Assembly: GCA_008632985.1 (NCBI GenBank)
Contig: QPGO01000081.1
Coordinates: 1-64,000, forward strand
Origin: Psammoneis japonica
Lineage: Eukaryota
Length of the DNA: 64,000 nucleotides
Direction: 5' to 3'
In this document: piece after piece, positions 172 through 64,000 of the stretch
Layout: every line of letters begins with the position of its first letter
How positions within the stretch are numbered: the stretch's first letter is position 1
Translations under genes and position numbers: made by a program
Notes under the pieces: generated by a model
Database searches by the model: none
What the model was told of the DNA's origin: nothing
What the model saw: the letters and a program-made list of their open reading frames with translations, nothing else

Positions 172-520
172 CACTGTGCTCGAAGAACGAGCACAAACGA
201 AAGTAGAATCAAGCATGAAAAGTGAAAATTATGAGATTAAATTTTGCTCTGTGATTTTTGGTTTCTCCGAATGAGTTCTCAATGGCCCAAAGCTTCTGCA
301 CTGCTTCTACAGACAAAAGGCCTTTCGGAGAATGTGTTCGTGACAACAGATTGTCCAGATGCGATTGCCATTGACACGCAAGATGTCAACATTGTCAATC
401 GATCGTATTTGCAATTTTTGACATCTGATCAACTCTGTGTGATCGTTCTGTCCTTTGTGCGCATCCATGACTGTGGTGCGATTGACACACAAATGACATG
501 TAACCACAAATGTGCACATG
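172..520 (+). repeat. Terminal fragment of a dispersed repeat starting CACTG (possible CACTA-type end); second copy at 50242-50600
   Basis: Near-identical to 50242ff (cactgtgctcgaagaacgagcacaaacgaaagtagaatc...). Both copies start at CACTG with different left flanks. Confidence 0.6.
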
Positions 521-524
521 ACAG

Positions 525-3350
525 TCTCATGCTGCAGGAGGTCGTGTGGGTCGACCATCGTTGACTCGTGGCAGTTGCCGGCTCGTGGGTTGCAAGGGGG
601 CAGACGAGAATGCTCAAGGATGATCGCCTTGGAGGAATGGGGCAACGAACCCCAGATCCGTTGGTGGTCGGGAGGGGGATGTTTCCATTGGTTGCTGGCA
701 AGGCTGGGACCATGGGTGCAGGCAGCATTGGCCTGAAGGATGTCAATGTCACTGTCGATTTCACAGAACACATCATTGGATGGTTCCTTGGAGCAGACGT
801 CGTGTGCGTGTGTGGCGCGGCGGGGAGCTCAAGGTGTTGTCTTGGGTTGAAACGTGCTGTCGCACTGAGCCGCCGCTGAGAGGAGCAAGCCACAATGTTG
901 ATCGCATGTGAGGCTCTTGCCACTCTGCGTGCAATGTTGATCAGCTTGGTTCTTGATGGCGCAAAGTTCCTTGACAGGATGTGCGGCATTCTCAAGCATG
1001 ACGTGCTTCTGTCCTTCAGAGAAGTGGTCACTGGCCGGGATGAGGGCCTCGCACTTGCGCAACTGATCCTGCCAATGAAGGATGAACCCATGGGTCAGAC
1101 CTTTCCAAGTGCCATCACCAAGGCATGCAGTGGTGAGGTGCATGAGCAAGGTGGAGGACTCGACAGATGCACGGGTGGAGGCAAGCGCACACTCGGACAA
1201 GGCGCGGCAGATGGTCTGGGCGTCAGAAGACCCCACATTTTCGTGAATGAGAGCCTTGCCCTTGTCGGTGAGAAGGATGTGTTTGAAGAATGCGAACATG
1301 TGCTTTTGCTGTTCAGCAAAGAGCAGTTTGTCTTCAGGACTGGTCAGTTTGTACGTCGAGTCTAGAATGCACTCAACGTCTTGGGCACGGGCTTGCACCA
1401 CAAGTGAGGTGTGCCAAGTGTGCCACTGCTTGTCAGATTTGAGAGCCATGAAAGCAGTGGGGTCACGCTTGATGCCTCGCTTGAAGTCTCGCACTGGGTC
1501 GCGTGCCTTGGTGGGGCCAGTGATGTGCAGAGGTGCAAGAGGTGAGCTGCCGATGGACACAGAAGACATGCAGTTGATGGGTTCCAGTCCCAGGTGAGAC
1601 TTTTTGTGACATTGGGCCCACAGAATTCCATGTGCAAGCTCCGCAGTAAAATTGCCAAGCAATGAAAATGTGAATGATCACCAACAGAAAAAGAGGCAAT
1701 TTTGCGAACGCATCTCCTCCTCCACACTTGAAGTGCATTGTTGACAGCATGCCCGGGTACATTCTTCAGACATTCAAGAACATGCCCAGTGCATTTTTAT
1801 TGTCATAAATGCAGAAAACAGAAAGCCTTTGGCTTCGCAAAACAGGCAATGTGGAACAATTTTTTACAATGGAACACGTAGAAATGCACGTGCGAAACAT
1901 GCGACGGATGACAAAAAACAATTGTGTCACAGTCCAGCAGCACGAGGTCCCACCTGGAGCTGGAGCGCGTCAGTCGGGGCTGAGGCGGCAGGCAAGGAAC
2001 TCATCATGCATGAACAATGAAGAGTCATTGGCAACATCAAGGCCCTTGTGTGCTTTGACAATGCACAGACTGGCCAGAGCTGCCAACATGTTCTTGTGAC
2101 CTCAGGGCAATGGGACCACATTGGTGCCGTTGTCCCACTTGAGCGAGTCGCTTTGGGAAAGCATGAACGTGAGCAGTTCTTGGTGCAAGTCCATGTTGTC
2201 ATGGGCCAGAGCCAAATGAAGAGGACTTCCAGCACCTTGGGCAAGCACAGTTCCAACAACGTGTCTGAAACCATCGGTTTGTTGCTGACGAGTGAGAACC
2301 ATGGTGGGGACAAAAGCGGTGTCAGGGCAAGCGATTCTTGTTGTTGGGATGCAGAGGCAGACTTGAAACTTGGGTTGGAATGGACTTGACTTGAAACAGA
2401 CTTGACTTGAAATCTTGAACCATGTTAAAATCAGAAGTCGCCGGGCTGTGCTATCCCGTTTGTTGTCAAGTGCTAAACTTCCCATCCGGTCCGCAGAGTT
2501 GTGCCGGCACGTCCGAACCCACAGCCAGCGGCGCTTTGGGTTGCTTGCAAGTGGAGCAGCGGGTTGTAAACCCCTGCAGGCAAGCTGACTAGAGGTGGAC
2601 AAGACCCCTGAACCGTTCTTATTTTGTGTCAGTTGGATTTCCCGATCAGGCGCTGTGGACGAACGAACAAATGTGGGAAAACACCCTCGCCCCAACGCAG
2701 GCTGCAATCACAGCTGCTTGCTCTCACAGTTGTCCTCGTGGACCTGGCAGAACTTTAGAGCACCAGCAGTCCAGGGCAGATCAGGTGCAATGGACTCGGT
2801 GTGCTTGTAGAGTGGCAGCAAAGCCGGAGTCCAAAGAGTGGGTTCAAGTTCTTGGCCGTGAAGATGCACATGTGTCAAGTGACGAAGATCCTTGAACATG
2901 CAGGGTTCTTGACCGTCAACCGTTGAATGGGTGTGCAAGGCGATGAGGATCAAGAATGGATTTGAACACAACCGTTGAATGCATGTCTTCAGCAATGGAA
3001 GGCAGCACAATCAATCCAGATGTCCAGCGGCAAGGAGACTTGACGGTGACGTTAAATTCCTGCCGATGCTTGGCATTGAATGCGCGTTGACTTGCCGATG
3101 CACGCAGAACACATGCGGAGGTCCACGCAGAATTGAGGTGGCATCGTCGGTAAATCAACGACGATGGCGGTTGCTCAATGGGTTGACAATGAGCAAGACT
3201 GTTAATCTGACAGAAATTGAAGGGCAAATGGCAAGAATTCAAACAACAACTCCTTGCTGCTGTCTAAATGGCAGATGAGTCTCCTCTCAGGGAGCAGAGA
3301 CCGTTGCAGGAGCCGAAAGACGTGTGAGTCGGTGTGATTGGGCTGCTGTC
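525..3350 (-). mobile_element. Truncated Ty1/copia (CoDi-like, family A): partial 5' LTR 3208-~3350, leader, degenerate gag
   Basis: Gag motif RDFKRGIKRDPTAF..LKSDKQWHTW (ORF 829-1662); colinear with the copy at 18560-21231. Confidence 0.9.
1576..1971. mobile_element. MITE (~395 bp)
   Basis: TIR gatgggttccag..ggtgagac / gtcccacc..ctggagcgcgtc; flanks AGTT/AGTC; empty site gcAGTCgggg near 19610. Confidence 0.9.
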
Positions 3351-3351
3351 A

Positions 3352-4300
3352 TCAAGCGCGATTTCACGTTGACGATCTGCTGTCGAGTCACGTGAATCCC
3401 AAAGCAAATGACAAGTTTCTCAAGTGGTTGAACAGAGAATGCGGAAGCCATGGCAAGGTCATGGCAACAAGAGGAAAGAAACATGATTGCCTTGGCATGA
3501 CACTGGATTTCACCAAAAAAGGAAAACTCAAGGTGGACATGAGAAAATGCACAGGATCGATGATCGATGACTTCCCGGAAAAGATTAAAAGCACAGATTC
3601 TGCAATGACACCTCCAGGAGAGAACCTGTTTGAGGCAGGCGGCACAAGACTGAACCAAGAGAAAGCACAAACGTTCCATGTGTGGGTGGCCAAAGGACCA
3701 TTTTCATCCAAGAGGGGCCACATGGACATGCACCCTGCAACATCATTGCCATGCATGCGAATGAGGGAACCCACAGTTGAAGACTGGGCAAAGTTGGTCT
3801 GGTGTCTGAAACATTTGAATCAGACAAGGAACGAAGTGGCAACGCCAAGTGCCAAGAACCTCCGAGCAGTGAAGTGGTGCATGGACGCGTCATTCGCGGT
3901 GCACCCAGATTTCAAGAGCCACACCGGAGGAGCAATGTCTGTGGGCAATGGAGCCATGCAAGCTGAGCTGGTTGGAGTCGACAACGTGATGACTGTGATC
4001 CTGTGAACAAAGCCATTCATGGAGCACCAAGGACATCCCGTCAACAAGAACATGCCACACCAGGACAACAAGAGCGCAATCTTGTTGGAGACCAATGGTT
4101 GCCGCAGTGCCGGCAAATGTTCCAGGGCACTCAACACAAGACACTTTTTTGCATGCAACCAAGTCAAGAAGGGCAACCTGACAATTGAACACTGCCCTGC
4201 AGATGCAATGATTGGGGACTTTGTGACCAAGCCATTGCAAGGCAAGAAATTTTGCAAGTTTAAACGAGCCGCAATGGGGTGCCAAGGACCCAAAGGCAAC
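3352..4300 (+). pseudogene. Copia RT/RNase H fragment (third family)
   Basis: HVDDLL (=YVDD), DASFAVHPDFKSHTGG, QDNKSAILLE, MIGDFVTKPLQG; disrupted frames. Confidence 0.9.
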
Positions 4301-4399
4301 AGGAGTGGATTCCTGTTTTGTGACATCAGACAAGAATTCTGATGTGCATGGGTGAGAGAGCCCTGTGACCCAGAGAATGATGAATGAGTGTCTTCTTCC

Positions 4400-6740
4400 G
4401 GAACATCATGGTGCAAGAGACACCGAGCATGCAATTGAACAACCATGGATGGCAATGAAGCCGGAGGTGACAATGCAAATGTGGCAGCAACTGATGCTCA
4501 TGTGTTCAATGAATGCACAAACTGTGAGCTTGTCACCTTCAACGAGTGCAATGAGCTGGCAGACAGCTGGCCCAACAACTGTTTGCTTGAGATTGCAAAG
4601 ACATTTGACATGCCCACAAAAGACAAGGATCTGTTTGTTGAAAAAGGAGAGTTGGACGGGAGACGCTGACCCACAGATTGGTGGAATGGAAACAAGACCA
4701 TGACATTCGACCGACTCATGATCCTAACCAGATAGAAGGACCCAATGAAGGAAGACTGCCATCACCAAACCCTGTCCCAGCAAGAGACACATTGGATCAC
4801 ACACAGCTTGCAGTGGACCTGGATGACAAAGGCAGACGCAACTCTGAAGAAATGAGGATGGGATGGAAAGAAAAATGCTGCACAAGGCTCGAGGCAATGG
4901 TGACGGTGTTCGAAATGTGTGAGACATGGACACCGACAATGCAAGAATTTATTTCCGCCAACACCCCAATGATCTCTGTTCACAACAATGTGGAGACCAT
5001 CATTGACAGGACGAGGTGGGCAAGCGTTGGAGCACACACCACTGAATCCCATTGGAAATTCCTGGCAAAAAGGACAGAAGCACACAAAAAAAACAAGACC
5101 GCGCCATGTGCAAGTGCAAGGAAACCGTGACAAATTGGCTTTCAACAGGCTAGAGATTGATCGCATGGCAACGTTGTCAATTTTTCAAGGCATGCCAACA
5201 TGTGGCATGGACAGTCTTGAGGAATGCGGAGGACCAATGCATCCAGGCCGCAACAACACTGCCAAGAGACCAGATCATTGCAAGCTTGTCATGGACAAGA
5301 ATGGAGTCATGTTCGATGCACTTAAATTGTCAATGTTCTTCAGAAGAGAGATGAACTTCATGTCAGATTTACGGAAGCATTGCTGGGTGGCACACATGAT
5401 GAGCTTTCTTGCATTGACTCCAAACGCCGTGCACCAGTGGATCCGAGAACAGAGCGAACAGTCAAATGACCAAAATGACACGCTGAGTGATGTGCGGCAA
5501 GAACTGAAGAGACAAGATCTGATTGTCATGTTCGTTGACTGTGTGAAAGATGCAACCAATGCATTCAATGACATGCTGGACTGTTCAAGTGACAAACAAG
5601 ATGAGTGGTGTTTTGCCTTGGGGGTCGACATTCAAGGAGAAAGGTGGAACATTTTCTCTCGATGGTGATGCCAACCTGTGTCGTGGCCCAAGAATTGTTG
5701 GAAGAACAATTGGAGTGAGTGTCAGGAGTGTGTCGGAGCAAGTTACACCAGGGTGTCAGAGAACCCAGAAACAGTTGAAGTGTCAACATTTCATCAAACA
5801 ACCCCAGTGGTTCCCCATTTTCTTGCAAAACAGCACCCACAGGAAAACACAAATGGTTTTTCAAAATGAAGTTTAAATCAGGGCAAAATTTTCACACAGG
5901 CCAAGAAATGTTCAGCAATTTGTCATGCAATGCTCAGGTGGCTGGACACCCCAGTTGCTGCAAAATGCAGCTTTCATTGTTTTTGCACTTTTGCTGCAAA
6001 CAGTTTGCAAACCAAACATTGTTTTCACACCCACAATGTGACAAGGTGTCAAACTTCCTGCGTGTGGCTTGCAGAGATGTCAGTCACCAAGCTGACAGCT
6101 TCTGCCTGCACAGCAACCACTTTCTTCTTCCCTTTCTTTTTGTTCACTGTCCTGGCAAGAGCACCCTGGAAATTTGAGCAATCTGGGCATGCTTTGGCAT
6201 TGACACAGCGACTTTCATGATGCAGTGCTTGCTCTTGCTTCTCCTGATCCACCAGCTGATGGGGCCTTTCCAGCCCCTTTGTCAACCATCCTTCATGGCT
6301 CTGCCCTTTTCCTTTGTGATCATCCACACCGTCTTGCCCCAGCACTGGCATCACCAGCAATCTTGAACTTTTCTGGATCAGTCGCCTCCCCTTGACAATG
6401 CCATTTTCCAGTGTTGTCATGACCATCGCCATTTTCTGTGTGGCTGCATTTGTTGTGGAGCTTAATTTTGTTCGACATGAGCAAATCAAAGCTTTGTTCC
6501 TTGGAGAGTGTTTTCTCCAATGGCAGTGCAAAAGCTGCAAAGAAAGGCACAACCTCACAAAAATCCACATCGAAATCCCCACCTGGAGGTTTCTTCCAAG
6601 GGTTACAATGCCATGAAACAAAGTTGCGTCATGGTGGAAAAAGCTCATGTTTGTTGGAATGCTACAGAGTTTAAAACTAAGAAAGAACACGAAATAGAAA
6701 ACCATGGCATTGTGCTACACAAGACCAAGTTGCAGTGAGC
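4400..6740. other. TpA-depleted degenerate sequence, probably TE-derived ORF remnants
   Basis: Same TpA loss as neighbouring TEs; fragmentary protein-like frames at 4445-5668 (+) and 6049-6705 (-); family not recognised. Confidence 0.4.
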
Positions 6741-6847: not shown

Positions 6848-9191
6848 TCAAAGGTGGCCACTATGTGATCTTGGCACATTTTCTGAGATTATTGTAAGGC
6901 GCCCCTTTGTGGCTGAAGCAACTTTCTTTGCTGTCTTGGCTTCATCTTTTATGCCCATGGTCTCCAAACGAAGAGATTTAACCGCATCACTAATGGTCAG
7001 TTCAACTCGGCAGAGAGAAAAAGCCACTTTGAGAATATCGTGGCGGATCATATCGTTGTTTGCCTGTGCTTCGTTTATGAGGCTTGTGAAAGTGTCATAC
7101 CAACTCACACTTTCATGGTCTTTCACCATTGCCATTGCGGCACTGCAGCACGTCCACGCCAAGAGCAGACCCAAGCTGAATTGATCGTGCCATTTTGCGT
7201 AGGCCCGATCCGTTCTTTGACTTTTCCACGACCACCCATCGGTTCCAAATGGCACTCGCAATGGATCAAACTCATCAGCGTTCACAACGGCAAGGTTAAA
7301 ATCACAAAGAACGAAGCGCTCGTGTCCTTCGTCACTACGTCGCACCATAACAGCACTGTCTTTTATGTCGCAATGAGCAATGTTGAGCTCATGAAGGGTC
7401 TCAACAGCTTGTAAAAGATCCATGCAAGCTGCCAAAGCACGATATGGATTCGATTGCAGGCTCGTCCAATCAACCTCGTCCAGTTCCTCCAAGAAAATGA
7501 CTCGATCCGTAATACAGACGTCGATGGGCTTCACCAATGTGGCACACGACGGTGTCGCTGCTGTTTTCGTGAGGACGAATACTTCGGTGTCAAATGGATT
7601 CCAGTTAATCTCATCGTACTCCTTCCAGTCCAAACGCTCGCTTTTCCGCACACAACGACTCCTGCTACAACGATGTGTTGCCCAACCCACTTCAGACCAA
7701 CCCGTTCGCACAAAGAATTTCTTGTCATCAAACTCATAGTTGGCGCAACGGCAGTTGTTTTTTGAGGGCTTCTTTAGTTTCAAAGGAGTTTTCGCGTTCG
7801 TCGACCCCGACTCGAAACGCCCTCCGCCGGGAGCCCGTGGAACATCGCCATCATTGTTGTTGCCAGATGCATCACCCGGCGTATTCGGTAGATTGGAAAC
7901 GACTTTCTGCCTTTTCGCATTTCTGGACGCATCCCCGTGGCTCGGCCGAATAAGTAGGCATGCCTCGACAATGCGTTGGATACGGATGCACGCATCTTCA
8001 AATAATTTAGTTTTCCCGCTTTCGCTATTGGGATGACGAGCTTCATCATGTCGCGCATCGAAACTCTCACGTTGAATTGGGACATGTGCGGGGTCCGTGC
8101 CCAAGGTTCTTTTGCACATCGGTGCGGCAAAGACGTCCAAGGTTACCAAACAAATTTCACCCTCAACTTGAATCATCGTGTATACTTCAAAAATGCAAGT
8201 CTTGCTGTCCGTTCCTGAACTCACAAGAATACCAATGGGTGGAGCGTTGGAAGGGCGCTTCTCCCATACCCGATAAATCTCCATTGCGACCTTACCACGG
8301 TCCCTACTTATTTTATCACCCTCCCCATTCATTGCACTTTCGAGGGTAAGGATGGTTTGGTTGGAACTGCTAGCCATGAGATCATTTTTTCGTTCCGTCG
8401 TTGTTGATTCTTGTATTTTCTTCTCGCGTTGGAAGCAAGGGATCCCATTTGCTTCGAGACACTGCCGCAGGAGGTTGATGTAGAACCCATCAAAGTATCC
8501 TTCGCATTGACCTTGTACCAGATGTCGCAATTCTGAGTTGAGATCAACAAACAAAGAGGAACAGAACATTCTGTAGCGATCCGCAATGTTCTCCCAAAAA
8601 CTCTCCGAAACAGTTGTTTTTGGACTCTTTTGCATTGCCATCTCTAAGTTCAGGTTCTCCAAGGGTACTTTGAATTTAGAATAATTTTCCACCTCCTCCT
8701 TGCGTTTACCTTTGTAACATTTGATAAAGTCTTCGGGAATCGCACGAGGAGGCTCAGCACCCTCGTCCAAGTGGAAAATGCCGTGGCACAGGACGCAACC
8801 TTTGCCATCTTGCTTTTCACTCGATGGGCAAGTGTCAAGATGTTTCTTGAAAAATTCTTTGAGTGTATCAGAGTGAGTTTCCACATGCTGTTGTCGTGGC
8901 TTGTCTGTGAGAGTCACAAACGAAATACTGTAGTGAGAGCAGGTGGCAACATGAAACATACCGCGCAATACAGCAATTTGACAAAACCATGCCCGCACTG
9001 CATCCCGAAATCTCACTTGCGAGCCAACAACAACTCAACTTACCATTCTGCTGCTGTTCGTCGCGATAACTTTGCCGAAGATTCTTTCGTCGCTCAAAAT
9101 CAAAGCTGTTAAACTCTTCCTCTGAAATTGGGAATCTCGCTAGCCATGATCTGTAGTCCTCGTCAATCGATTGCCAATTTGTTGTCGCCAT
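6848..9191 (-). CDS. Two-exon gene (exon 1 9191-9044, intron 9043-8905, exon 2 8904-6848; 734 aa): PD-(D/E)XK-like nuclease plus C-terminal protein kinase, Crinkler-type architecture
   Basis: A GTAAGT donor and a ctcacAG acceptor join MATTNW..QQQN in frame to DKPRQQ. Kinase motifs IAHCDIK, LCDFNLA, GTDGW; REase-like RKNDL..TLESA..RDRGK. Normal TpA/Tyr content. Confidence 0.8.
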
Positions 9192-10330
9192 GTTGTTGTT
9201 GTTGCTTTCTGTTTGCTTGTGCTCGTCTTGGTTTTGCTGTTTCTGTTACTCTCTCTCTTCTCTCTTCTGTTGCTGTCAAATCGGCGAGACGGGCGACGCA
9301 CTCTACAGTAGGGCCCTAGGCCCTACCGGTAGAGACAATACATAGGAATCATTCGGCTCTCAGAGTCATTACGTAGAAATTGTGTAGAAGAGTACCAGAA
9401 ATATTTATACCCAGGCTATCCAGCAGTTCCTCCCAGCCAGAAGGAAGAAGAGAAAAGGAAAAGAAAGCAAAAAACAATCATTAATGAAGTTTTGATACGG
9501 CACTGTAGTGCCATAGTACGTAGTGCAGATGGACGTATGCAGGTACAGACGCGCCACGTGCCGGTGGTGAGGGCGCGCTCCGTCGTGCGACAAGCAGTGG
9601 AGGTGGGCCGTTGAGCAACACGTCGAATTTGGCATGAGGTGTCATGCGTTTATGTGCACAGAAGGATGGGGATCGTCAACGCCTGGAACACAGCACACAG
9701 CAGCAAGTGCACCGCCTCATCATCACGACTTCGTCGTTGTTGCTTTAGAAACAGCAGAATGGTGGAGGAGAACATCGTTCCGTCTGTCAAAGCAGAGGAC
9801 GTGACAGCTCCGGAAGTCGCAGCAGAACTCACGGGCGCCAAAGGCATGACTGCGGCGGCAGTGGCCATGACTGCACTCCGCGCTGCGGGAAGTGCCGTGG
9901 GTGTGTCTGCCGAGTCCAAACACAAAAGGATTTCAGAGAAGCCGGTGCAGCCCCAAAGTGAAAATGGGGAGAAAGCCGTGCCGCCAGAGCCAACCTTTCA
10001 AACATCATGTGGAAGCAACGGTCATGACCAGGGAGAATCCAACTGTCAAGGAGACAAAGGCAGCATGGGCGGCAGCACCACCACAGCCTGGGATGACTGG
10101 TGGGAGATTTTTCACTGAGGAGGAGCTGGAAGAAGTGGGAGCAACAGAGCAGGAGAAGGAGCAAGCAAGGATCCTACGGAACAAGTGCAGTGTGGACAGA
10201 AAAATGACAGAATGGGCGCAAGTTACAGCAGCTAACTATTTGGCAAAGACAACCATAAAAACACATAAATTTCGCACACTCAGACTTTCAAAATCCCAAA
10301 AAATTGAATCCAGATGAATGACCCTGCTTG

Positions 10331-10402: not shown

Positions 10403-11925
10403 GCTGCATTAAATTCTACGTGTTTGTGCCAGGAAAATGCACCTCCAACCCATCCGGCAGGCGTGAGTGACATTTTGTGTGCGAGAAAGAGTTCGTTGGG
10501 GCAGGCGAACAACATCACTCTACGATGCGACTGGTGCAAAATCTTCGTAAATGCACAGACACGCTCTGGAGCATGTCTGTGCAAATTCGAGCTCGTAAAT
10601 GACAAGCAGGGACAAATCACAGTGGTTGTCAGTTCTACATGCAAGTGGCGTTAGCTTCGACTTGTGCGACTAAAATCTCAGTGAATGTTCTGGAGCTCGA
10701 TCGACCTCGAAAATTTTTAAAATTCCTTGCTCACATGCATGAAAGGCTGTTTCATGGAATCCCATTTAATGACACAGAGCTGCATGTTTCAAGATGTTGT
10801 TCCAACATCAAAACTGCTGTGGCATTTGGAGCACCTTCCACAGCCCTTCCCTTTGCTTGTTTGAGTGACCGTTCCTTAGATGTGCTCCAAATGGCAAGCT
10901 TGTTTTGACCTCTGGTGTGGAGATCGATGTTCTTTCCTGAACAAACGCTGATGTCCTGTCACGAATGCAGGCAGTCCATGTGCTGTTGGCGATTGATTGG
11001 TCCACTGTCGCTCATTTGGTGGCCACCGCAGCGTGACATCTCACAATTCTAGAACCTGTTGATGCTGTTGAACACTCTGTCTTGTCTTGCACCCAATTCT
11101 TGGCCATCATGGCAGCACTTGTTCACTTCATCAGAGCCAACACGCCATGATGTTCAACACCTGGAACGGGCATCGCGAACGGCATGACGGTGTCATTGCA
11201 ATGGATCGATTTTTGCGGCAAGCACCATGTTGGCCCCATGGTTGCTCATGCAATCGCTGAGTCTTTTGTGCACATCAATGTTCATGGACATGAACAACAT
11301 GCTCTTGGAGACCAGAGCTGTGATCTGCCAGACATGACGTCAGTGAACTGAATGTTTGATCACGTGGATGGAACATGTTGGCTGAGACACATTGACGTTT
11401 GTGAAATGTGCAACACAATGGTTCATGCATTGAGGTCTGCTCATTGTGTGCATTTGACACACCAAAATGCGTCATGAAACTGCTCAGACACTGCACATCA
11501 ACCTCGCCTGCTCACGGGTTTGCCAAGCAGAAACCGCCAAATCGGCGCGAGAACCAAACATTCTCTCACTTTTCTCCACTCACACAAGTGGATGCTCACG
11601 CATTGAAGTGCAAACAACAATTGACACACCATGGCCGCTGCCGCAGCCAACGCGTTCCAGCTTCAGGTGGGACCTCGCACTGCTGCACTGTGACATCAAT
11701 GGTTTTTTGGATCGCGTCGCATGTCGCGCACGTGCATTTCTGCGTGTGACATCATACGAAATTGTTTCATGCTCCCTGTTTTGCGAAGCCAAAGGCTTTC
11801 TATTTTCATCATTTGTGAGAATGAAAATGCGCTGGGCATGTTCTTCAATGTCTGAAGAACACACCCGGGCAAACTGTCAATGACAGAAATTGAAGGCAAA
11901 TGGCAAGAATTCAAACAACAACTCC

Positions 11926-13035
11926 TTGCTGCTGTCTAAATGGCAGATGAGTCTCCACTCAGAGACCATTGCAGGAGCCAAAGGACGTGCAAGTTGGCAT
12001 GATCGGGCTGCTGTTGTCATTCTTGTGAGCCTTGTGGCTTGAAAGAAAACTGCACCGTGCACAAACGCGCGGAACTAAAGCACACAAAACTGTGCGCGAC
12101 AAACTAAACAGCACGCGGCATTTCGCGCGCACCCAAATCCAGCTCAAATCCTGTCACTCCCCAGTTTGCTTGAGGAGTCACAGAAACAGATTCGACTTCA
12201 GATGGGATGAAGTTCCAGAACATGAGGGGGCGGAGAAGGTCCCAGACTTGGGAGCAACCCCAGTGCTTGCTGAGAATGTCAGCAGGGTTGCGGGAGCCTT
12301 CGATGAAGTGGAGCTCAAGGTGACCAGAGGCAATTGCCTCACGCACACAGTGGAACGACAGTGCGGTGTGTTGCTTGTGTAACTTGGAGTGCGGGATGGT
12401 GGCACTGTCCACAACTGACTTGTGGGTCAAAGCCAAACTAAGAGGGCTTCCAGCACCTTGGGCAAGCATGGTTCCAACAACGTGCTCGAAACCATCGGTT
12501 TGTGGCTGACGAGTGAGAACCATGGCAGACAAATGATGGTGTCTTGCTGCTGTCTAAATGGCAGATGAGTCTCCGCTCAGAGACCATTGCAGGAGCCAAA
12601 GGACGTGCAAGTTGGCATGATCGGGCTGCTGTTGTCATTCTTGTGAGCCTTGTGGCTTGAAAGAAAACTGCACCGTGCACAAACGCGCGGAACTAAAGCA
12701 CACAAAACTGTGCGCGACAAACTAAACAGCACGCGGCATTTCGCGCGCACCCAAATCCAGCTCAAATCCTGTCACTCCCCAGTTTGCTTGAGGAGTCACA
12801 GAAACAGATTCGACTTCAGATGGGATGAAGTTCCAGAACATGAGGGGGCGGAGAAGGTCCCAGACTTGGGAGCAACCCCAGTGCTTGCTGAGAATGTCAG
12901 CAGGGTTGCGGGAGCCTTCGATGAAGTGGAACTCAAGGTGACCAGAGGCAATTGCCTCACGCACACGGTGGAACGACAGTGCGGTGTGTCGCTTGTGTAA
13001 CTTGGAGTGCGGGATGGTGGCACTGTCTACAACTG
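11926..13035 (-). repeat. 618-bp period duplication of the LTR/RNase H end, with a leader fragment (12420-12545) at the junction
   Basis: ORFs 12032 and 12650 are near-identical and offset by 618 bp; the junction piece matches leader 19840-19960. Confidence 0.85.
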
Positions 13036-13395
13036 ACTTGTTGTCACCGAACATGCAACTGATGTCACGGATCGGGACGCCGAGGCAGCGCAGGGTGATG
13101 CGCAGGTCGATGATCTGCTCAACACAAGTCCTTGCGGCAACAAATTCAGACCCGCAGGTCGCAGTCTCCACGGTGGCTTGCTTCTCAGAGAACCAATCAG
13201 CCGGGAATTTGTTGAGGAAGTGGAGCATTCCCATGACAGAGCGTCCGGTGAGCATGCAATGACACAAGTTTGCATCGACGCAGTGGGCGGCAGTGACAAA
13301 CTTGCCAAGGGGCGGTGGTGCGTCCTTCGGGATCATCTCCTCTGCTTTGCCGTACACGGAGTGCATCCATTCACAGGCCGGTGCAGGGAGATCCT

Positions 13396-13785
13396 GACGC
13401 GTTCCAGCCCTGGTTGGGACTCCGTGTGACATTCGGCCCGCAGAATTCTACGTGCGAGCTCCGCAGTGCGAGAATTTAATTAACGGACATGTTTGTCTTC
13501 AACATCAAATGAACGGCCAAGTTTGTGGTGCAATTGTGCCACTCAACACTCGACGTTTTTGCAAAAGCACCTGCCCTGCGCGATTCTTAAGACATCATAG
13601 AATCGCGCTGTAACAAAAAATGTCAAAAGTTGCTGGACGGATCGCTCAACAAGTGTGCCGTAAAATGACACAAAATGTCGCAAAAATCATGCAGAAATCT
13701 ACGTGCGCGACATACAACGCGATTCAAAAAACTGTCGATGTCACAGTTCAGCAGTGCGAGGTCCCACCTAGACCTGGAACGCGTC
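13396..13785. mobile_element. MITE
   Basis: TIR gacgcgttccag / ctggaacgcgtc; TSD TCCT; empty site near 32420. Confidence 0.95.
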
Positions 13786-14840: not shown

Positions 14841-15231
14841 GACGCGTTCCAGGTCTAGGTGGGACCTCGCACTGCTGAACTGTGACATCGAGCGTGTTTT
14901 TTGAATCTCGTCGTGTGTCGCGCACGTAGAATTCTACGTGATTTTTTGACATTTTGTGTCATTTTGCGGTGCACTTGTTGAGCGATCCGTCCAAAAACTT
15001 TTGACATTTTGTGCCACAGCGCAATTCTACAATGTCTTAAGAATCACGCATGGCAGGTGCATTTGCAAAAACGTCGAGTGGCAAGAGGCTTAATTGTGCC
15101 ACAAACTTGGCAGTTTATTTGATGTTGAAGACAAATGCATCCATTGATTAAATTCTCGCACTGCGGAGCTCGCACGTAGAATTCTGCGGGCCCAATGTCA
15201 CACGGAGTCCCACCTGGGGCTGGAACGCGTC
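14841..15231. mobile_element. MITE
   Basis: Same TIRs; TSD TGTG. Confidence 0.95.
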
Positions 15232-48998: not shown

Positions 48999-49278
48999 TG
49001 ACAGGATTTGAATGGGATTCAGGTGCGCGCAAAACATCGCGCGCCATTTAGTTTGCCGTGCACAGTTTTGTGTGCTCTTTAGTTCCGCGCGTGCGTGCGC
49101 GATGCAGTTTGCTTTCGAGCCACAAGTGCTCACAAGAACAATGACAGCATCCTGATTGTGCTGACTTGCATGTCTTTCGGCTCCTGCAACGGTCTCTGAG
49201 CGGAGACTCATCTGCCATTTAGACAGCAGCAAGGAGTCATTGTTTGAATTCTTGCCATTTGCCATTCAATTTCTGTCA
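48999..49278 (+). mobile_element. Solo family-A LTR
   Basis: TGACAGGATTTG..TTTCTGTCA; flanks CTGAT/CTGAG (imperfect TSD); interrupts a copia pol segment. Confidence 0.85.
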
Positions 49279-53679: not shown

Positions 53680-55530
53680 AATTTGCGCAAAATTGTGGTT
53701 GACGATGTTCCGCTGTCGATGGGAACACGTAAATTCTTGTTTTTCTCCTTCCCAGCAAGGCCGCTGCAAAGGAGAGCATCGAGCAACGTGAGCGGGAACT
53801 GGCAGGGAAGATCGCCAAATTGGACCTAGACAGCACAGCTGCCACCCGTAAATCGGCAAAAATCATTCGGAACATGCAGAAGTCAGAAGAAACTGCCCGG
53901 TTGTTTCGCAAGATCAACGTGCAAGGCAAAACACAATGCAGGAGTCAATGGCGCACAGGTCCCTCGCAACCCGGCTGCCAATCCTAAAGAGTGCAAAGAT
54001 TGGATCACGATTGATGCCCCAGATGACGTTTCAGCAGCATTGTGTTCTTGGAATCAGCGACACTTTGGACAGGCACACGGCACACCTCCCACAGTTCCTC
54101 CCCTGTCTGTGGATCTCGGGTGCGAAGGTGACACGGTTGTGGCTGACCTGATCTTAGATGGAGAATGCGACACATCCTCTCTCAACAGCACCACTGCTCT
54201 GTTCATCCAACATCTCCGACGGCGTTCACCAGTGTCGGTGTCTAACTTCCTGACTGAATCGGATCTCAAAGGGAAACTCAAGGTGTGGAAAGAAACTGCA
54301 TCTGCTTCTGTTCTCGGGCCTTCATTTGGGACACTGGAAAGCAATGCAGCATCTCATTCTCATTCAGGCTCTGCTGCCCCCGAAGGTGACCCCACGCCTG
54401 AGTGCCAGCATTTGAATGAAGTTCAACAATGGCTGATTCGGATTCGTTTGAATTTGTTAAACCATGCTCTACGTTGGGGATGCTCGTTCAACAGGTGGAA
54501 GGACATTGTCAACGTCATGATTTTCAAAGAGCCGGGTGACAACAAGACACATGTCTCCGAGTTGTCCACATCTGCGAGGCAGATTTCCAGTTGATGTCCA
54601 GTGTGAAATGGAGAGTCTTGGCGCAGAACATGGAACACCGTCCCCTGCACAATCCAGGCATCTAGGACGTGTCCCTTTTTGAATGCTCACACACCGGTGT
54701 GCCTTGAGGAACTCATGCTTGAGATCAGCAGAGTCTCCCGGAAAACTGCGATTCACAGTGATGGAGATTGCACCTCATGCTGTGATCGCAACATTCCTGC
54801 TTTAACAGCACTCGAAAGCCGCAGCAACGGCATGCCCAAATCAGCAACTCAGACGGCAAACGCTGCTTTGCACGATGCAAGACACTGGCCAAAGACTGTT
54901 CTTGGCCTGTCAACATCATCTTGCTCCCACTCGGACGATTTCCCTGTCTGCGGCACTGGCCAGGGCAGCGGAAACTCACCCTTTTATTGGAGTCAAATTT
55001 GCAACAGCTCATTTTGGCTGTTTGACAGTCAAGCTCATGGGGCCTGCTTTGAAACTCCTGACAGGACTGTCTCAATGCGGATTCACACCAGAGGGCATGT
55101 TGACGACACTTCAAATCAAGTGAGTGCCTTTTGTGCTGATCCCCAACCAGATGCGCTGGACCTTGTCCCTCGAATGCAGCAAGACAATCAGTTGTGGTGC
55201 GACCTCCTGGACGCAGCAGGACATGAGCTGGAGCTTCCAAAGTGCTCGTTTCATGCTGTTGAATGGCATTTTGCTGCTGATGGCGAGCCGCACCTTCGGG
55301 CGTACAATGACGAGATTGACATTGAAGTGCACTCCGCCGACAGATCCACCAAAAGATCCAGCACCCAACTTTCTGCTTGCTCCTCCCACAAGACACTGGG
55401 CCACTGCAAATCTCCTGCAGGCACTCAGAAGACTCAGTGCAAAGCACTGAAAACAAAAGGGATGACATTTCTCTGTTTCTCCGGTCGTGTCCATTGGAAG
55501 ACTGTCATGAGGCATGGACTCACCATCAGA
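53680..55530 (+). pseudogene. Non-LTR retrotransposon RT fragment (Ambal-like)
   Basis: RWKDIVNVMIFKEPG, GTGQGSGNSP, GHVDD (=GYVDD), GHELELPKC, KTLG. Confidence 0.85.
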
Positions 55531-57679: not shown

Positions 57680-60600
57680 TTGATGCGCGCACCCCATTTT
57701 AGAAACAAACCTGACCAACACTTCCTTCTGTCCTGTGTGGCCCAAACAAATTGGGCCTTTTCTTGCGCTTCTGCTGCTCCTGGACATTCTTCACAAACCA
57801 AAACATTGTCCCCAATTGCTTCGACAGGGACAACACGTAACTTGGGTGAGTGCTGAGTCTTCTCAGGCGTTGAAATCCAGTTGTTTCGTTTGTGATCAAG
57901 CTGCCAGCGACTGACCAAGTCTGTGTGCTGATGCCGTTGCCTCACAGTTCTCTGGTCAGCTTGACAAGCAGTTGGGTGCACCACTGCAAAAATTGATCCT
58001 GTGTGTTCCTGTTTGAAGAAACATGGCAAACGGGAGGGAAACTGTTGATCGCCCTTTCGTGCGCCAAAGGTCACACAGGCAAAGTCATGCCATGGTCCTT
58101 CGCTTTTGCAGTCGGGGTGCGCACGGCACGTGTCCCTCCCGTTTGCATTGCAAAACTCTGTCTTACAAGTCAGGTGTGTATTTTCACTGTCTTCACCAAC
58201 ACAATCCTCCCACTTTTCCGACATGAAGTTCAGTGACACAGGGTGAACTTGGCAATGAGTGTGCAAGCTGTTCCACTCAAACGTCACAGCGCCGATCCCT
58301 CGGTTGCAGGTGAGAGTGAACGCACTTCCTCCCAGCGTGTCATTGTCCATCCTGACTCTTGATGATTCCTTTTTCCCAGTTGGCAAAATCCAACTGTCAG
58401 CTGAAATTGCGGCGTTGAGCCTCATTTGGTCCTCCATGCGTGACACGACCTGCTTCAGAAAACTGTCGAGGTTGCGTTGTTGTGCGGCAGATGAGGGCAG
58501 CTTGAAAAAGTCTTTCAAGAGACATTCCCCCAAGCCTGCGTCAAAGTTCATCGCATGTCAGTGACAACAAAGAAACACTGGGAGATGGAGTTTTCATGAA
58601 GCTTTTGAAGCTTCCACCCGCATCCTTCTGTTGCGGGACAAATTGCACTGTCTGGTCAATGAGGAGACGGATTTTCTTGTTTGTTTTCTGAATGGATGAA
58701 CTGGGAGTTGTGCTTGTGATGGGTGGATTGCCTGGCCTGTGCCATGCGTGGAAGACAAGAAGGTCCTCGAGCAATTGAATGAATTGCCGGACGCTGCAGC
58801 CAAGTCTTTTTCCCTTGTGTTTTTTCTTGTTTTGGTTGTCGTCACCATCCTCAGCCTCACTCTCCTCTTTCTCATCCTCATTGTTGTCCCAGCCACCCTC
58901 TTCGGACTCCTCCGACCTTTCATCGTCAGAGTCCAAGCACTCGCTAGGTTGGCAGCAACTCTCAAAGTTTGCTTTGGGTGTCTTGCGATTCTCTGGAACA
59001 ATGGGTTCGTCTGCGTCCTCGTCAAGGAAGCATGACTCACATGCGTTTCGTCCCTCGCTGGCCAAAAAGAGAAGGTAGAAAACAAAAGCCATTCCAGCCC
59101 AGTGGTGAGAGTTGAGGAAGGCAAGCAACATTGCTCCTCCTTTGAAGTTTGTTCGCAAAAAGGAGGCTTTGCAAGTTGACCGGTGATTGCTGAAAATCCT
59201 TTCCACTGTGCTGTCCACCTCACTTGCGACCACAGGTGTCATGCTGTCTACAAATGAATTGATTGCCCTTTTCAAGGTGCCGTTTTCAAAGAGATGCATC
59301 ATGTCGCTTGCTGTTGCAAGGGCAACGCCGCATGGTTGTGCGCCAAAGTCTGCCTCAAAAAGACAGTTGGCAGGTGCGTTGTGTTGCTTGAGGCAATGCA
59401 AGATGCCCAACCAGTGCTTCCTTTCTTGGTCTGATCTGTTGTCGTCGTTGGCCTTAGTTTGCACTTGGTGGAGATCCAGTCCTCGGACAAACTCGCATTC
59501 AATCCATGGGTCGTCGAGTTTGTTGAAGCCAGTGAGGCAAAAACGACAGCAACGTTGACGACAGTTGTGGACGCGTTCCAGACGTAGGTGGGAATCCGTG
59601 TGACATTGGGCCCGTAGAATTCTACGTGCGAGCTCCGTAGTAAAATTATACGGTAATTAGAATGTCAATGTTCGCCAACAGAAAATGAGGCAATTTTGCG
59701 AACGCACAAACTCGCACATGATTGAAGTACATCGATTTTTACTTAGCCAGTTACATTCTTCAGACATTGAAGAATGTAACTGGTGCATCATTGTTTCTAT
59801 AAATGCGTCATGTAAAACGTCTGGGGCTTCGCAAAACAGCAAGTCTGGACAATTTTTTTAAACATCACACGTAGAAATGTACGTGCGAAACACAAGACGG
59901 ATGATAAAAATTATTTGTGTCACACGTCAGTGCTGCGAGCTCCCACCTGTGGGGCTGGAACGCGTCTGTGACCTCCGCATCGTCCGACGAGACAGTTGCC
60001 GCTTTTTGCGTCTCCTGTGATCAGAACGATCAGTGGGATTACGTGGAGGTGTTGCATCTCATCCCCTCGTCGCACGCATGTTTTCATGCCTCCTTTTCTC
60101 ATGACTTCCAAAAGTGGCTCCAAAATGACACGCAAGCAAGTGTGGCAGTCTCTCAACGAGCATCCCTTCTCCGCCTTGCGATTGTTTGAGAGATTCTTTG
60201 CCGCAGATGACGACATCTTTTCCAAATCCGGGAGACAACCAAGTGGTTTCCAGACACTCTTGTCCGCCATTTGTTGAAGGCAACATGCGCAGAGGTCATG
60301 ATCACTGGTTCTCCGCAACATGATCCCATCCCTTGTGTCCCACCAGTCTTGTTGAGGTGAATGACATTGCACTCCAGAAATTGTTTCTCTGGGTCAGTCA
60401 TCCGTTCTTCGCAACTGCGCCTGTGCCACTCACCCGCCAAAAGGCATTTGTCATCCAGTCCCTTCGCTTTGCACTTCCCAAAAGGATTGTCTGGATCGGC
60501 CACATTCTCTCTGCTGCACCACAGGTGAGGATCAAGCAAAAACTGTTCCCAAACCTTTGCGAAATCCCATCTTGGCACTGACACTCGTTTTGGCATGCCG

Positions 60601-60859: not shown

Positions 60860-63800
60860 ATTGCCTGAAGGCGATGCCGACCCAAAGCAGCTGGCAATGG
60901 AGCATGTGCCTTGCACGGCAAGCCGTTTGGCTTCCCACAGACTAGACTTGAACATGGGCTTTGCCATGGCCAACCAATTTCGCATCCGATGGGTGGAATG
61001 GGTCAAATGCTCTTCAACCGAATCAAGCAGTTGGAGCTTGTCTCTTGCCAAGCACTCATCCACTCTGGAATGTGTTTCTTGGACTTCGGCCTCCGCGTCA
61101 CGTCGTTGAGCAGATTTCTTTGTTTCAGAATCGTGTCCATGCACGGCATCATTGTGCATGTCCCACAATTCCCACCACTGTGACCAGATGAAACTGCCAA
61201 CAGTCGCCGCCCAATCAAGACGTTTCTCCCTGTTGGATGAAGTGTGACACACACCAGCAGCCAACAGGTGCGACCGCTGGGCCACATTCCACAAAGTGGA
61301 AAACCTGCCACTGAAAATGTGTTGCCATCCAATGCTTTCTTGGGACCAAAAAGTTGCATGTGTGCCACAATGAAATTCCTCAATGTGTGGCATTTCTTCA
61401 CGAAACCACCCTTCCAGAGAACACAAGAGCATGTCCCGCAAAGCCGGGGAGGCATTTGTGTCGTCGCATTTCTTTTGAAGACCTTGAAGAAATTTGCATC
61501 TCCATGCCTCATTGTGAGGGCAACGAAGGATGTGATCGCGGTCCTCCATCGGATGTTGACAATGGATGCAACAGTCGGGACGAGTGGGGTTGCACCTGTG
61601 CACGATTTTGTTTGTTGGAAGGAGATCTTGGACCAATTTGACAGTGCTCACCTTGCGCCGGATGTTCCTCGACACCAGTTTTGAATGCACTTGCCAATCG
61701 ATCAACTGAAACACAACGTCGGACCACCCACACTTCTCTTTCATGTGTTGCACAAGAGCTGGACTGGATGCCTCATGCCGAAGGATGGTCTTGAAATTTG
61801 AAGTCAAGGTGCCCGCTGGAATGTCAAGCAATGCAGAGCAATTGGGCATGCGGGGCACAATGGAGGCATCACCATCATGCTGGCCCTGGAATCCGGCAGC
61901 TGGCGTGTCTGCTCGAACATTCAATTTAGCGGGGAGAGATGAGTGTTGATGTGGAATGGAGTCGTCTTGGTGCCCTTTCACCCAGGAAAGCATCACTGGA
62001 GTGCCCTGCACGCCCTCACTCTGTGTGCTTGTAACTTTTGCAAAGAAATAAAAATTTCGTGAATGACACCCCAATCAGGAGCCAGGGTGTTGGAGACATG
62101 GTGCCTCAGGCGAAAATCCCGTTCACGGTGAGTCTCGTCCGCATCGTCGGGGTGTGGGGGCAGTGCCTCAAGTTCTGAACATTGCGGACAAAGGAAGAGT
62201 TGTCGCAGCGACACTCCATCCCAAGTGGAAAAGTCCAATTGCAAAATTTCATAACACAAAGAAGGAACAGCACCACTGAAAGGCAACCACAAGCCTCTGT
62301 GCGACACGAGAAGGACGAAATCCAAAGACTGGGCCTGCACAATCCGCCAGAAAAACTCCACCAACAGACAACGTCCAGCCAAAGGCACCATTGCACTGCA
62401 CCACCGAGCCATCGCTGCCAACCATTGCACGAGAGTCAGCCAATGTTTCCGCTAGTTCAAACACTGACACGTGCAGCGTCAAGTCTTGAAACAGGGCCGA
62501 TTCCCATTTGGGCAAAGAACGGACCCAAGCAACAAAATCACCCGGGACAGGGAGACACGGAGGAATGGATGCTTTAGAGAAAGATGATTGAAGATGCCAC
62601 TTTCCATCATTGGTGGTGTCGATCAAAACAGGAGATGCCGAAGGCGACAAGTCCGGAACAGTCTCTGGGTGCCTCAAAGATTCTGCGCATCCGTCTCGGA
62701 CGGGATGCACATTGCATCCGATGTCAGACCGGATGTGCAAAAACTGTTCGCTCGGTTCAAAGCAGGCCGGGAATTGCACGCGCATGTCGGCAGCAGCAAC
62801 AATCCATTGTCCCAATGGATGTTTCAGCGAACAAGTGTCATCCCTGCAAAACATGGTGCACGCTCGACACCACTGCTTCCAAGCTCTGGGAGACGGAGAC
62901 GGCTGCTCCACTGGGTTGTTCAATGAAAAACTGCTGAGGAGGGAGCGATCACCTGCCAATTTAAATGCATCAATGGATCGACCATCTGGAAGAGCAATGT
63001 CAGAAACCGTGAGCACATTGAGATGCAATCAACAGCAATTGATCCAGCGGATCTCTTTGTCAGAGAATTCACCAGACTCAAGTGCAACATAGAATTCACC
63101 AGACTCAAGTGCAACATCCATGATGCGCTGATCGTTGTCCCACTGAAGGGGCAACACACCCGCATCGTCCAAGTCGAGAGAGGCATTGGTCCGAGCCAGA
63201 AAAGATCGCAGAGACATGAACCATTTAGATTCGGAATGAGGCAGTTTGGAATGGACATCCACTGAAAAGCTGATGCCAGTGCCCAATTGAAACTGTGTCC
63301 AAGCCACCGTAATGCGTGACAAAACATTGGGTTGACCACTGCCGCACCAGTGCCGAACAAACTGCATGCATTGGGACATGCCTTGTTCCACGTCTAACGA
63401 CCGAAAACTGCCTCCACCAAGGGTACACGGACCAAAAAGCACGTCTCGTTTTGTGTTTCGGTTGTACCCGCACTTTGCAAAAATCGTCCGCATCGCTTTC
63501 CGCTGAACCTCCAACAATTCCTTTGGCAAGAAGTGAGCATTTGGGAGATTGTGAGACACAGACGACAAGCAGCAGACGAAGTGATGCATCCAAGCTTCGT
63601 GTCTGTCAAGAGGACACGCTCTAAGGAACAAAGCAATGTCATCGCTCTTCCTCTTTGACGCCAAGCATTGCATTTTCTGAGCACCAGCGGGAAACTTGCA
63701 GTGCCCTAAGGTCTTGTGAGATGAGTGAGCCGAAAGCTGGGTGCTGGACCTCTTGGCAGCACGGTCGGCGGAGAAAATTTCAATGTCAATTTCGTCATTA

Positions 63801-64000
63801 AAGGGGTGCAAGCAAGGTTCGCCATCCTCCGTGAAAATCCATTCGACAGCATGAAATGAGCATTTGGGAAGCTCCAGTTCGTGGCCAGCAGCATTGAGAA
63901 GGTCGCACCACATTTGGTTGTTGTTGCTGTTGCCATTGTGCCTCTCAATGAAATCAACAATGCAATCGCACAATTCCAGGGGAGCACCACGTGTGTCCAT
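60860..64000 (-). pseudogene. Non-LTR retrotransposon 3' part: RT end, RNase H, CCHC finger (Ambal-like)
   Basis: GHELELPKC (homologous to 55200ff), SDGSV..GAFGW, WVKGHQD, LNVRAD, CIHC..EDRDHILRC. Confidence 0.85.

Follow-up and report, generated by a model that had tools for sequence, protein, structure and literature searches.

We report the analysis of a 64-kb stretch of DNA from Psammoneis japonica (contig QPGO01000081.1, positions 1-64,000, of one assembly), hereafter the window, which consists almost wholly of repeats apart from two host genes, as judged by self-BLAST and Pfam, and whose repeats have been stripped of nearly all TpA dinucleotides. Copia elements of the long terminal repeat (LTR) class, a long interspersed nuclear element (LINE) family and a family of short elements bounded by terminal inverted repeats (TIRs), which resemble miniature inverted-repeat transposable elements (MITEs), are all affected, and in each of them TpA has given way to TpG or CpA. 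In our judgement this is probably the product of a targeted, enzymatic TpA to TpG/CpA edit of duplex repeat DNA, made in place, presumably guided by chromatin and most likely carried out by an adenine deaminase.

The window as a whole holds 718 TpA against approximately 3840 expected, an observed/expected ratio (O/E) of 0.187, with TG at 1.51, CA at 1.52 and CpG at 0.72. In the repeats (51,363 bp) the O/E of TpA is 0.12 and that of CpG 0.69, TG and CA both standing at 1.57, and in the two host frames (7,456 bp) TpA is at 0.48 and CpG at 0.97. The other dinucleotides differ little between repeats and genes, such that among the 16 the depleted ones are TpA and, to a lesser extent, CpG; ApA stands at 1.18 in the repeats and 1.19 in the genes, and ApT and TpT are also untouched. 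The distribution over 500-bp bins is bimodal, with a TpA O/E below 0.3 in 103 of the 126 bins, and the remaining 23 belong either to the two gene regions or to two copies of the MITE-like family. Hand counts in the original prediction, a note made from these letters alone, of 2 TpA in 3301-4320 (2.0/kb) and 13 in 38521-38820 (43/kb) were exact. Particularly poor stretches are positions 1-6500, where 1-kb bins have a TpA O/E of 0.06-0.15 and which hold a copia fragment (505-1710, minus strand, family A as defined below), a MITE copy (1576-1971) and an open reading frame (ORF) with the motif HVDD, and positions 35885-37414, which carry 5 TpA in 1530 bp (O/E 0.056).

The loss has consequences for coding potential. 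The reverse transcriptase (RT) ORF at 13788-14642 (minus strand) contains, as had been observed previously, no Tyr at all, along with 13 His and 15 Cys. With TAA and TAG erased, long open frames abound in the dead repeat DNA: the window has 109 stop-to-stop frames of at least 150 aa, the longest single one being 1035 aa. Of the 196 ORFs of at least 110 aa in the window, the 178 in repeat regions were scanned against Pfam (E 0.01), and the scan returned three RVT_2 matches and one chance-level match to CD20. For annotators this means that ORF length is no evidence of a gene here and that profile-based annotation of transposable elements (TEs) largely fails.

The direction of change, from TA to CA or TG, is settled by comparison with relatives of the elements. 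Relatives of the RT frame, identical to it at up to 73%, include many metagenomic copia polyproteins of full length (about 1850-1990 aa). We aligned 45 full-length relatives with MAFFT, retained columns with at least 80% agreement and mapped the copies in the window by tblastn with the protein query P0111. Tyr survives in 4 of the 119 cells of the copia copies that fall in conserved-Tyr columns, Cys having taken its place in 56, His in 43 and other residues in 16; the codons found at these former Tyr sites are TGC (39), CAC (32), TGT (17), CAT (11) and TAC (4). The destruction of Tyr codons claimed in the original prediction is thus borne out. Conserved residues other than Tyr are kept at 0.64-0.93, and Phe, Trp, His, Cys, Gly, Pro, Ala and Leu at 0.88-0.93.

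The LINE family gives the same picture. The frame at 63032-64000 (minus strand) is classed as a LINE because its relatives carry an APE endonuclease together with an RT (Pfam Exo_endo_phos or RVT_1). tblastn with the query P0231 locates two pieces: a hypermutated copy running from the RT to the C-terminus (60884-63916, minus strand, residues 933-1929) and a fragment of the same APE endonuclease and RT type (53878-55479, plus strand, residues 496-1029). Polarised against 35 relatives, Tyr is kept in none of 7 columns conserved at 70% or more (His 4, Cys 2, Ser 1) and in 1 of 21 at the looser threshold of 50%. The copia Tyr columns, the LINE family and a pair of MITE copies described below thus agree on a change of TpA to TpG or CpA, as had been proposed.

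It had been recognised from the outset that TE families which are themselves free of TpA and Tyr would give the same appearance. This is not the case. Of 413 metagenome copia loci that were confirmed, the best 80 have a TpA O/E with a median of 0.74, a minimum of 0.35 and a maximum of 1.07, and His or Cys occupies only 3 of their 1036 cells at 13 conserved-Tyr columns of the RT. In the copia copy of the window designated A2, 8 of the 9 of these columns that it covers carry His or Cys.

The replacement of the catalytic YVDD by HVDD, claimed earlier for two copia families and the LINE, holds in part. HVDD occupies this position in both copia copies of family A (14277-14288 and 31920-31931), where all 45 homologues have YVDD. 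Among the copia families the replacement is established for this one alone: copia family B retains YVDD at 34100, and a further HVDD, at 3365 in the ORF 3338-4003, lies in no TE family that we could find: this ORF has no Pfam match and no match within the window or among the 45 copia homologues. For the HVDD at 55096 in the LINE fragment the claim is supported by the nearest relative, which has YVDD, and is opposed by 31 of the 35 relatives, which have F at that position.

The copia copies provide evidence on where and on which strand the change is made. Copy A1 of family A lies at 12200-19621 (minus strand; P0111 residues 113-1848 in pieces), is interrupted by four MITE insertions and has His in 15, Cys in 19 and Tyr in 1 of its conserved-Tyr columns. 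Copy A2, near complete, lies at 27863-32996 (plus strand; P0111 residues 148-1848, with an RVT_2 match at E 5.7e-17) and runs into an assembly gap; it is 67% identical to P0111 in the RT-RNase H part and has Cys in 19, His in 14 and Tyr in 2 columns. A fragment of family B at 33527-35071 (plus strand; 34-40% identity to P0111 in tblastn, RVT_2 at E 5.8e-8) has Cys in 4, His in 3 and Tyr in 1. Three tandem units of approximately 1003 bp, 96% alike, at 46015-49010 (plus strand) are revealed by self-BLAST and tblastn as internally deleted copia A fragments, with Cys in 12, His in 8 and Tyr in none of these columns. All of these copies are hypermutated.

Aside from the polarised counts, we note that the tandem units match P0111 residues 1266-1404 and 1773-1850; what was amplified here into a satellite is a piece of a TE. 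Within the 3' end of A1 there is also a direct duplication of 499 bp at 99% identity (11925-12423 and 12543-13041), which is far younger than the split between A1 and A2.

Of the 38 conserved-Tyr columns shared by A1 and A2, 11 have Cys in both copies, 10 have His in both, 8 have Cys in one and His in the other, 3 have Tyr in one copy and 6 are otherwise composed. The alternative fates of a single Tyr codon in the two sisters, first noticed by eye, are therefore real in 8 of the 38 columns, although such a Cys/His alternation does not always mark a former Tyr, as 2 of 56 conserved-Arg columns show it too. The presence of both concordant and discordant outcomes implies that the loss took place partly before the duplication and partly afterwards, independently in each copy. 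Both strands are affected about equally, with Cys 56 against His 43 at copia Tyr sites and TG 6075 against CA 5980 window-wide, and we found across the window no skew between TG and CA, whether long-range or linked to orientation, and no consistent bias with the orientation of the elements. This balance, the involvement of a TIR element and the divergence of sisters after their duplication uphold the view that the change is made in place, on duplex DNA and on both strands.

The sister copies also permit a rough estimate of rates. At sites other than pyrimidine-purine steps (YpR) A1 and A2 differ by 3.6% (93/2560). Simple arithmetic on the A1/A2 counts since the split gives a survival per lineage of about 0.77 for CpG and about 0.05 for TpA, or approximately 2.9 hits per site for TpA, 0.26 for CpG and 0.018 for ordinary sites, where the figure of 2.9 was obtained after removing about 11 of 51 CA/TG discordances expected from CpG. 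On this rough reckoning TpA is lost some ten times as fast as CpG, and at a rate that exceeds background by about two orders of magnitude.

The decay of CpG is indeed a separate and slower process in these repeats, and one that accounts for part of the Cys/His alternations, a point that went unnoticed in the earlier note. The conversion of CpG to TpG/CpA expected of 5-methylcytosine (5mC) decay is found in the repeats, where CpG is at the reduced O/E given above, and among conserved residues of the copia copies Arg is kept at 0.64, its replacements (His 14, Cys 12, Gln 11 and stop 7) being the mark of CpG decay. In 112 alignments between copies the differences in dinucleotides, which are unpolarised and taken alone would suggest CpG, comprise CA/TG (509), CA/CG (451), CG/TG (437), TA/CA (99) and TA/TG (95). 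TpA has the lowest identity in the partner copy (0.568), followed by CpG (0.694), the others lying at 0.75-0.86. Multi-copy columns in which CA and TG occur together have as their third state CG (15 cases) or TA (7), never both, which points to two classes of hot YpR sites. Across bins the depletions of TpA and CpG correlate, with a rho of 0.56 when all bins are taken and 0.43 when only the depleted ones are, and they are nevertheless separable, as the stretches 44500-45100 and 50-53 kb are poor in TpA with CpG near 1. Six of the metagenome copia loci (L019, L047, L063, L067, L069 and L073) have a CpG O/E of 0.10-0.24 with TpA at 0.46-0.71; loci of this type, poor in CpG with TpA kept, indicate that CpG decay is common elsewhere without the TpA process.

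The MITE-like family extends the finding to DNA transposons, as the original prediction had it. An unmutated element of 397 bp at 59570-59966 (plus strand), with perfect 12-bp TIRs at 59570-59581 and 59955-59966, contains 22 TpA (O/E 0.70, CpG 1.33) and forms an island of normal TpA, all the TpA of 59456-60039 falling at 59585-59912. In the sister copy at 1576-1971, identified by alignment to this element and retaining 6 TpA (O/E 0.21), 14 of the 22 have become CA (10) or TG (4), a further 4 are still TA and 4 are in some other state. Four more copies, sharing their termini with the 59570 element, are nested in A1 (13396-13785, plus; 14841-15231, minus; 15691-16079, minus; 17546-17934, plus), and another lies at 23819-24208 (plus). 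These five are partly mutated, with a TpA O/E of 0.29-0.39 and CpG at 0.94-1.31. The four nested copies are missing from A2 and were therefore inserted after A1 and A2 split, and they are already half depleted. The TpA O/E is thus graded, from 0.70 in the 59570 element through 0.3-0.4 in the nested copies and 0.21 in the copy at 1576 to about 0.05 in old copia. That the 59570 element is untouched implies one of two things: the process is slow or episodic compared with the arrival of new insertions, or a short insertion, while still new, is passed over for a time. As a separate observation, the termini of this foldback/TIR family of approximately 390 bp read GACGCGTTCCAG...CTGGAACGCGTC, and the presence of four insertions in A1 and none in A2 could stem from a preference in insertion or from a local burst.

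Synonymous positions and borders bear out the initial supposition that repeats are the target and genes are left alone. The host genes are VPS15 and an ORF with a weak protein-kinase domain, both described below. VPS15 has a TpA O/E of 0.51 at codon phase 2-3 and of 0.58 at 3-1; the corresponding values are 0.46 and 0.48 for the kinase frame but 0.17 and 0.05 for A2. Over all phases the ratio spans 0.41-0.58 in VPS15 and 0.30-0.48 in the kinase ORF, the latter with CpG at about 1, and in A2 the three phases give 0.04, 0.17 and 0.05. As synonymous positions of the genes are undepleted, a genome-wide pressure under which selection alone maintains genic TpA does not account for the pattern. The borders are sharp: the TpA O/E jumps between less than 0.1 and more than 0.4 within a single 300-bp step near 6500, 9650, 37350 and 44500. 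Beside the kinase gene, unique non-coding DNA at 9150-9600 has a normal TpA O/E of 0.83-1.22, and past this flank the ratio is down to 0.00-0.15 by 9600-10049.

The loss of TpA obeys an additive rule of one flanking base, in which TA followed by T is hit most, then C, then G and, far behind, A (T > C > G >> A). We derived it from the survival of the ten NTAN tetramers in the repeats of the window relative to 364 kb of unmutated relatives. ATAT was not found at all (survival 0; its O/E in the relatives is 0.98), and the others follow in the order ATAC (0.027), ATAG (0.039), ATAA (0.072), GTAC (0.105), CTAC (0.116), CTAG and GTAA (both 0.235), CTAA (0.36) and TTAA (0.72). A model in which each strand acts independently according to one flanking base, with four parameters fitted to nine values (ATAT being omitted), leaves a root-mean-square residual of 0.089 ln units and predicts 0.008 for ATAT; the fitted hits by the base after TA amount to 2.44 (T), 1.19 (C), 0.78 (G) and 0.19 (A). 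Taken on the complementary strand, the rule becomes A > G > C >> T for the base before TA, an equally valid reading by symmetry. The product tetramers (ACAB versus ATGB) do not show to which strand the rule belongs, and on the Tyr outcomes the two readings lie 4.4 log-likelihood units apart. The additivity of the flank effects suggests an agent that treats one strand at a time and reads three bases.

Support for these letters comes from public sequencing runs, two of which, from one sample, contain the stretch; no RNA run was among those listed. Contigs of run X1, assembled from exact 31-mers, have a k-mer depth of about 111 over VPS15 and of thousands over the repeats, and three of them, at a depth of 69-84, match the TpA-poor stretch 35885-37414 with no other letters and one gap; such depth in exact 31-mers needs accurate reads. 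Run X2 covers the gene region only, at a depth of 5-35, and X3 only about 100 bp. The tandem units at 46015-49010 have merely 2-4 CA/TG-discordant columns per 1 kb, from which it follows that the outcomes were inherited and not redrawn in each copy.

The direction of change, its dinucleotide, its balance between strands, its action in place after duplication, the sparing of genes and the flank rule are taken as demonstrated, and on them a mechanism may be proposed. The DNA affected includes LTR/copia elements, a LINE, TIR/MITE-like elements and tandem arrays, marked perhaps by duplication, foreignness or chromatin marks, and recruitment would probably be through the silent-chromatin state of the repeats. 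An enzyme would turn A:T into G:C at the A of TA on either strand, editing one strand at a time and reading a trinucleotide (TA with T > C > G >> A, or the complementary reading); in what would be the most likely chemistry, adenine is deaminated to hypoxanthine, which pairs with C. The process comes near to saturation in old copies and remains partial in younger ones, has left one recent insertion untouched, and halts within 300 bp of host genes and unique flanks. Pol eta, which had been put forward as an alternative agent, is not supported, as its motif is WA and yet ApA is undepleted in repeats and genes alike, at the ratios given above.

The main rival to adenine deamination is oxidation of thymine, to which we assign a small but real chance: a dioxygenase of the TET/JBP type would oxidise the T of TpA to 5-hydroxymethyluracil or 5-formyluracil, which would mispair with G and so turn T into C. 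5-Formyluracil mispairs with G, and 5-hydroxymethyluracil in dinoflagellates is enriched at TpA. In sequence alone an A to G change looks identical to T to C on the opposite strand, and the flank rule reads equally well as a rule for T. Against this route, nothing in the window speaks specifically for it, and the authors of a preprint on the alga Bigelowiella natans, to which we return below, favour an ADAT2-like deaminase, which they propose without a test. It is improbable, in our view, that the loss reflects no enzyme at all and is a passive mutation bias at an unstable TpA step, acting over time in silent, late-replicating or poorly repaired chromatin. The joint rise of TpA and CpG depletion fits such an effect of age or chromatin, as does the grading of depletion with apparent insertion age, but the loss is strictly of TpA, follows a clean additive trinucleotide rule and leaves ApA, ApT and TpT alone; it runs, by our own arithmetic, at about two orders of magnitude above background; and it has borders of less than 300 bp and an unmutated 397-bp element within depleted DNA. 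A passive bias of such a size is not known to us.

The remaining explanations fare worse. A base modification at TpA in heterochromatin that was misread as TG or CA would likewise track the borders of TEs and could give either product, and the platform of the runs is not on record; the exact match of the X1 contigs over 35885-37414, the inherited outcomes in the tandem units, the unmutated element inside the same TpA-poor block and the fact that the assembly contains a scaffolding gap (140 N at 33000-33139) leave such a sequencing or assembly artefact a very slim chance. That TE RNA underwent ADAR-like A-to-I editing and carried the changes back into the genome through reverse transcription and re-insertion is scarcely credible. 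Most of the affected elements are retrotransposons, and a 5' U is favoured both by ADAR and by fungal A-to-I editing; yet sense and antisense changes occur in about equal number (Cys 56, His 43), sister copies have diverged at TpA in place after their duplication, and the process has reached a TIR/MITE-like element as well as a 42-bp tandem array that sits in 1-kb bins with TpA O/E of 0.13 and 0.00. We have rejected it, since it would mark one strand only and could not touch the TIR element. Practically no chance remains for CpG decay acting on TEs that are innately poor in TpA, with no mutation of TpA. Its appeal lies in the copy differences involving CG (451 and 437), which outnumber those involving TA (99 and 95), and in the retention of Arg at 0.64; but Tyr is kept in 4 of 119 cells, the TE relatives have a median TpA O/E of 0.74, and a CpG deficit of this size (O/E 0.72) is far too small for the excess of TG and CA. 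The copia Tyr columns, the MITE pair and the TpA-normal relatives together refute it.

A number of observations weigh against a targeted enzymatic edit, or against the scope that we give it, and are collected here. The case is built on fixed differences in a single window of one assembly, with no de novo events observed, and the sequencing runs derive from one sample, probably that of the assembly itself, on a platform not on record, and so provide no independent confirmation. The signature is absent from all 80 related copia loci from other sources. In the host genes TpA is also rather low, at 0.48, and either leakage or a genome-wide bias may be the reason. Eight TpA are kept in both A1 and A2, far above what a single rate predicts, implying that sites differ in rate. 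Lastly, among 51 polarised Tyr records the log-likelihoods of the two flank readings, H1 (-37.6) and H2 (-42.0), are both surpassed by that of a 50:50 null (-35.4), which is the best.

The rest of the window may be described briefly. VPS15, the regulatory subunit 4 of PI3K, lies at 38503-43770 (minus strand), is spared from TpA loss and is recognised by its Pfam domains Pkinase, VPS15-like_hel, HEAT and WD40. It forms an intron-free single frame of 1755 codons, the largest frame of the window, and its best named relatives are all from diatoms (Nitzschia, Cylindrotheca, Fragilariopsis, Pseudo-nitzschia, Fistulifera and Thalassiosira), with a top identity of 49%. The frame carries long low-complexity inserts consisting of Ser, Thr and Gln runs. 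Between the window and the run contigs VPS15 shows T>C differences that are probably allelic, of which 4 of 7 are at TpA (39531, 42193, 42264 and 43264); these may represent a weak leakage into genes, or chance. Adjoining the 3' end of VPS15, a frame of 303 aa at 37505-38413 (plus strand) has normal TpA, 10 Tyr and no Pfam match, and may be an unannotated host gene or mere untranslated flank. The second host ORF, of 728 aa, at 6848-9034 (minus strand), has a weak protein-kinase domain (Pfam Pkinase, E 9.7e-9) and is also spared. On the 5' side of A2, Tandem Repeats Finder locates the array of 13 copies of a 42-bp unit at 27345-27891; with 83% matches, it corresponds to a repeated peptide within a long frame of the minus strand.

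The original prediction had held that no process of this kind had been described. This no longer stands, as the main text of a 2026 preprint (Mettrop et al., bioRxiv 10.64898/2026.01.13.699255) reports a measurement of the same signature in B. natans. Our literature searches aimed at diatoms returned no account of the same process, and broader searches returned the B. natans preprint only. Two integrated viral regions account for 231 of the 302 single-nucleotide mutations found in the nuclear genome of the mutation-accumulation lines described there; all of these but one (230) are A>G or T>C changes, every one of which lies on TpA according to the preprint; and the rate was about 1000 times background, with only some lines affected (10.64898/2026.01.13.699255). 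The same source finds TpA-depleted coding sequences of B. natans to be enriched in RT and DDE domains, and it is here that the ADAT2-like deaminase is proposed (10.64898/2026.01.13.699255). As reported there, B. natans shares with P. japonica the change of TpA to TpG/CpA, the targeting of mobile or foreign DNA with host genes left alone, and the combination of low TpA with high CpA and TpG. The hosts are far apart, a chlorarachniophyte and rhizarian in the one case and a diatom, thus a stramenopile, in the other. In B. natans the preprint measured live mutations, whereas the process is known here from fixed differences, with a rate that we roughly estimate at 100 times background. The depletion is deeper here, with a TpA O/E of 0.12 over 51 kb compared with a Rho of 0.45 in the region of nucleocytoplasmic large DNA virus (NCLDV) origin and a cluster cut-off of 0.43 in that source. 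Furthermore, no TE class seen in the window has escaped, the decay of CpG proceeds alongside, and the flank rule was derived here; the latter is an addition to the preprint, in the main text of which the words 'context' and 'trinucleotide' do not occur and the four passages that use 'motif' are without wider flank context.

We regard the diatom case and the TpA hypermutation of B. natans as processes of one kind, previously reported a single time; the diatom provides a second, much more extreme instance in a distant lineage. That preprint, on one organism, is so far the one report of a targeted A:T to G:C edit of genomic DNA. With a second and distant lineage the process can no longer be regarded as peculiar to a single alga, and in the window it has reached saturation across LTR, LINE and TIR elements alike. 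Such a process can shape a whole repeat complement, raising its GC content, removing its Tyr codons and two of the three stops and creating long false ORFs. We would tentatively go further, in a suggestion that we hold to be possible though rather less than even, that diatoms and chlorarachniophytes share an inherited, chromatin-guided defence by TpA base editing, widespread in the stramenopiles, alveolates and rhizarians (SAR), in which a natural enzyme acting on A or T in duplex DNA, one strand at a time and with the preference TA[T>C>G>>A], would erase Tyr codons, TAA/TAG stops and TATA-like signals from mobile elements of all kinds, as a mirror of the repeat-induced point mutation (RIP) of fungi. 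If true, a shared SAR defence would be a source of a natural DNA adenine editor, and an editor of this type, active on duplex DNA, would be of interest to the engineering of base editors. A gene family that tracks the signature across diatom genomes would offer a handle on the enzyme, and the flank rule provides a fingerprint by which candidate enzymes may be judged.

Comparison with longer-established systems places the process more exactly. RIP changes C to T, mostly CpA to TpA, and raises TpA. The process seen here resembles RIP, a fungal system treated in PMC2621366 and PMC7296669, in that transitions at the DNA level wreck repeats in place, spare single-copy genes and leave a dinucleotide signature, but its polarity is the opposite, TpA being removed (0.12 in the repeats), CpA and TpG being raised to 1.57 and GC rising. 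With the decay of CpG through 5mC it has in common the products TpG and CpA and the very repeats in which they arise, although that decay cannot remove TpA and is about ten times slower here. ADAR, fungal A-to-I editing and the base editors derived from TadA are similar in their change of A to G and in their preference for a 5' T or U; in contrast to the process inferred here for duplex genomic DNA and both of its strands, ADAR and the TadA editors act on RNA or are engineered. ADAR prefers G on the 3' side and TadA prefers TAC, and the flank order found in these repeats, T > C > G >> A, matches neither.

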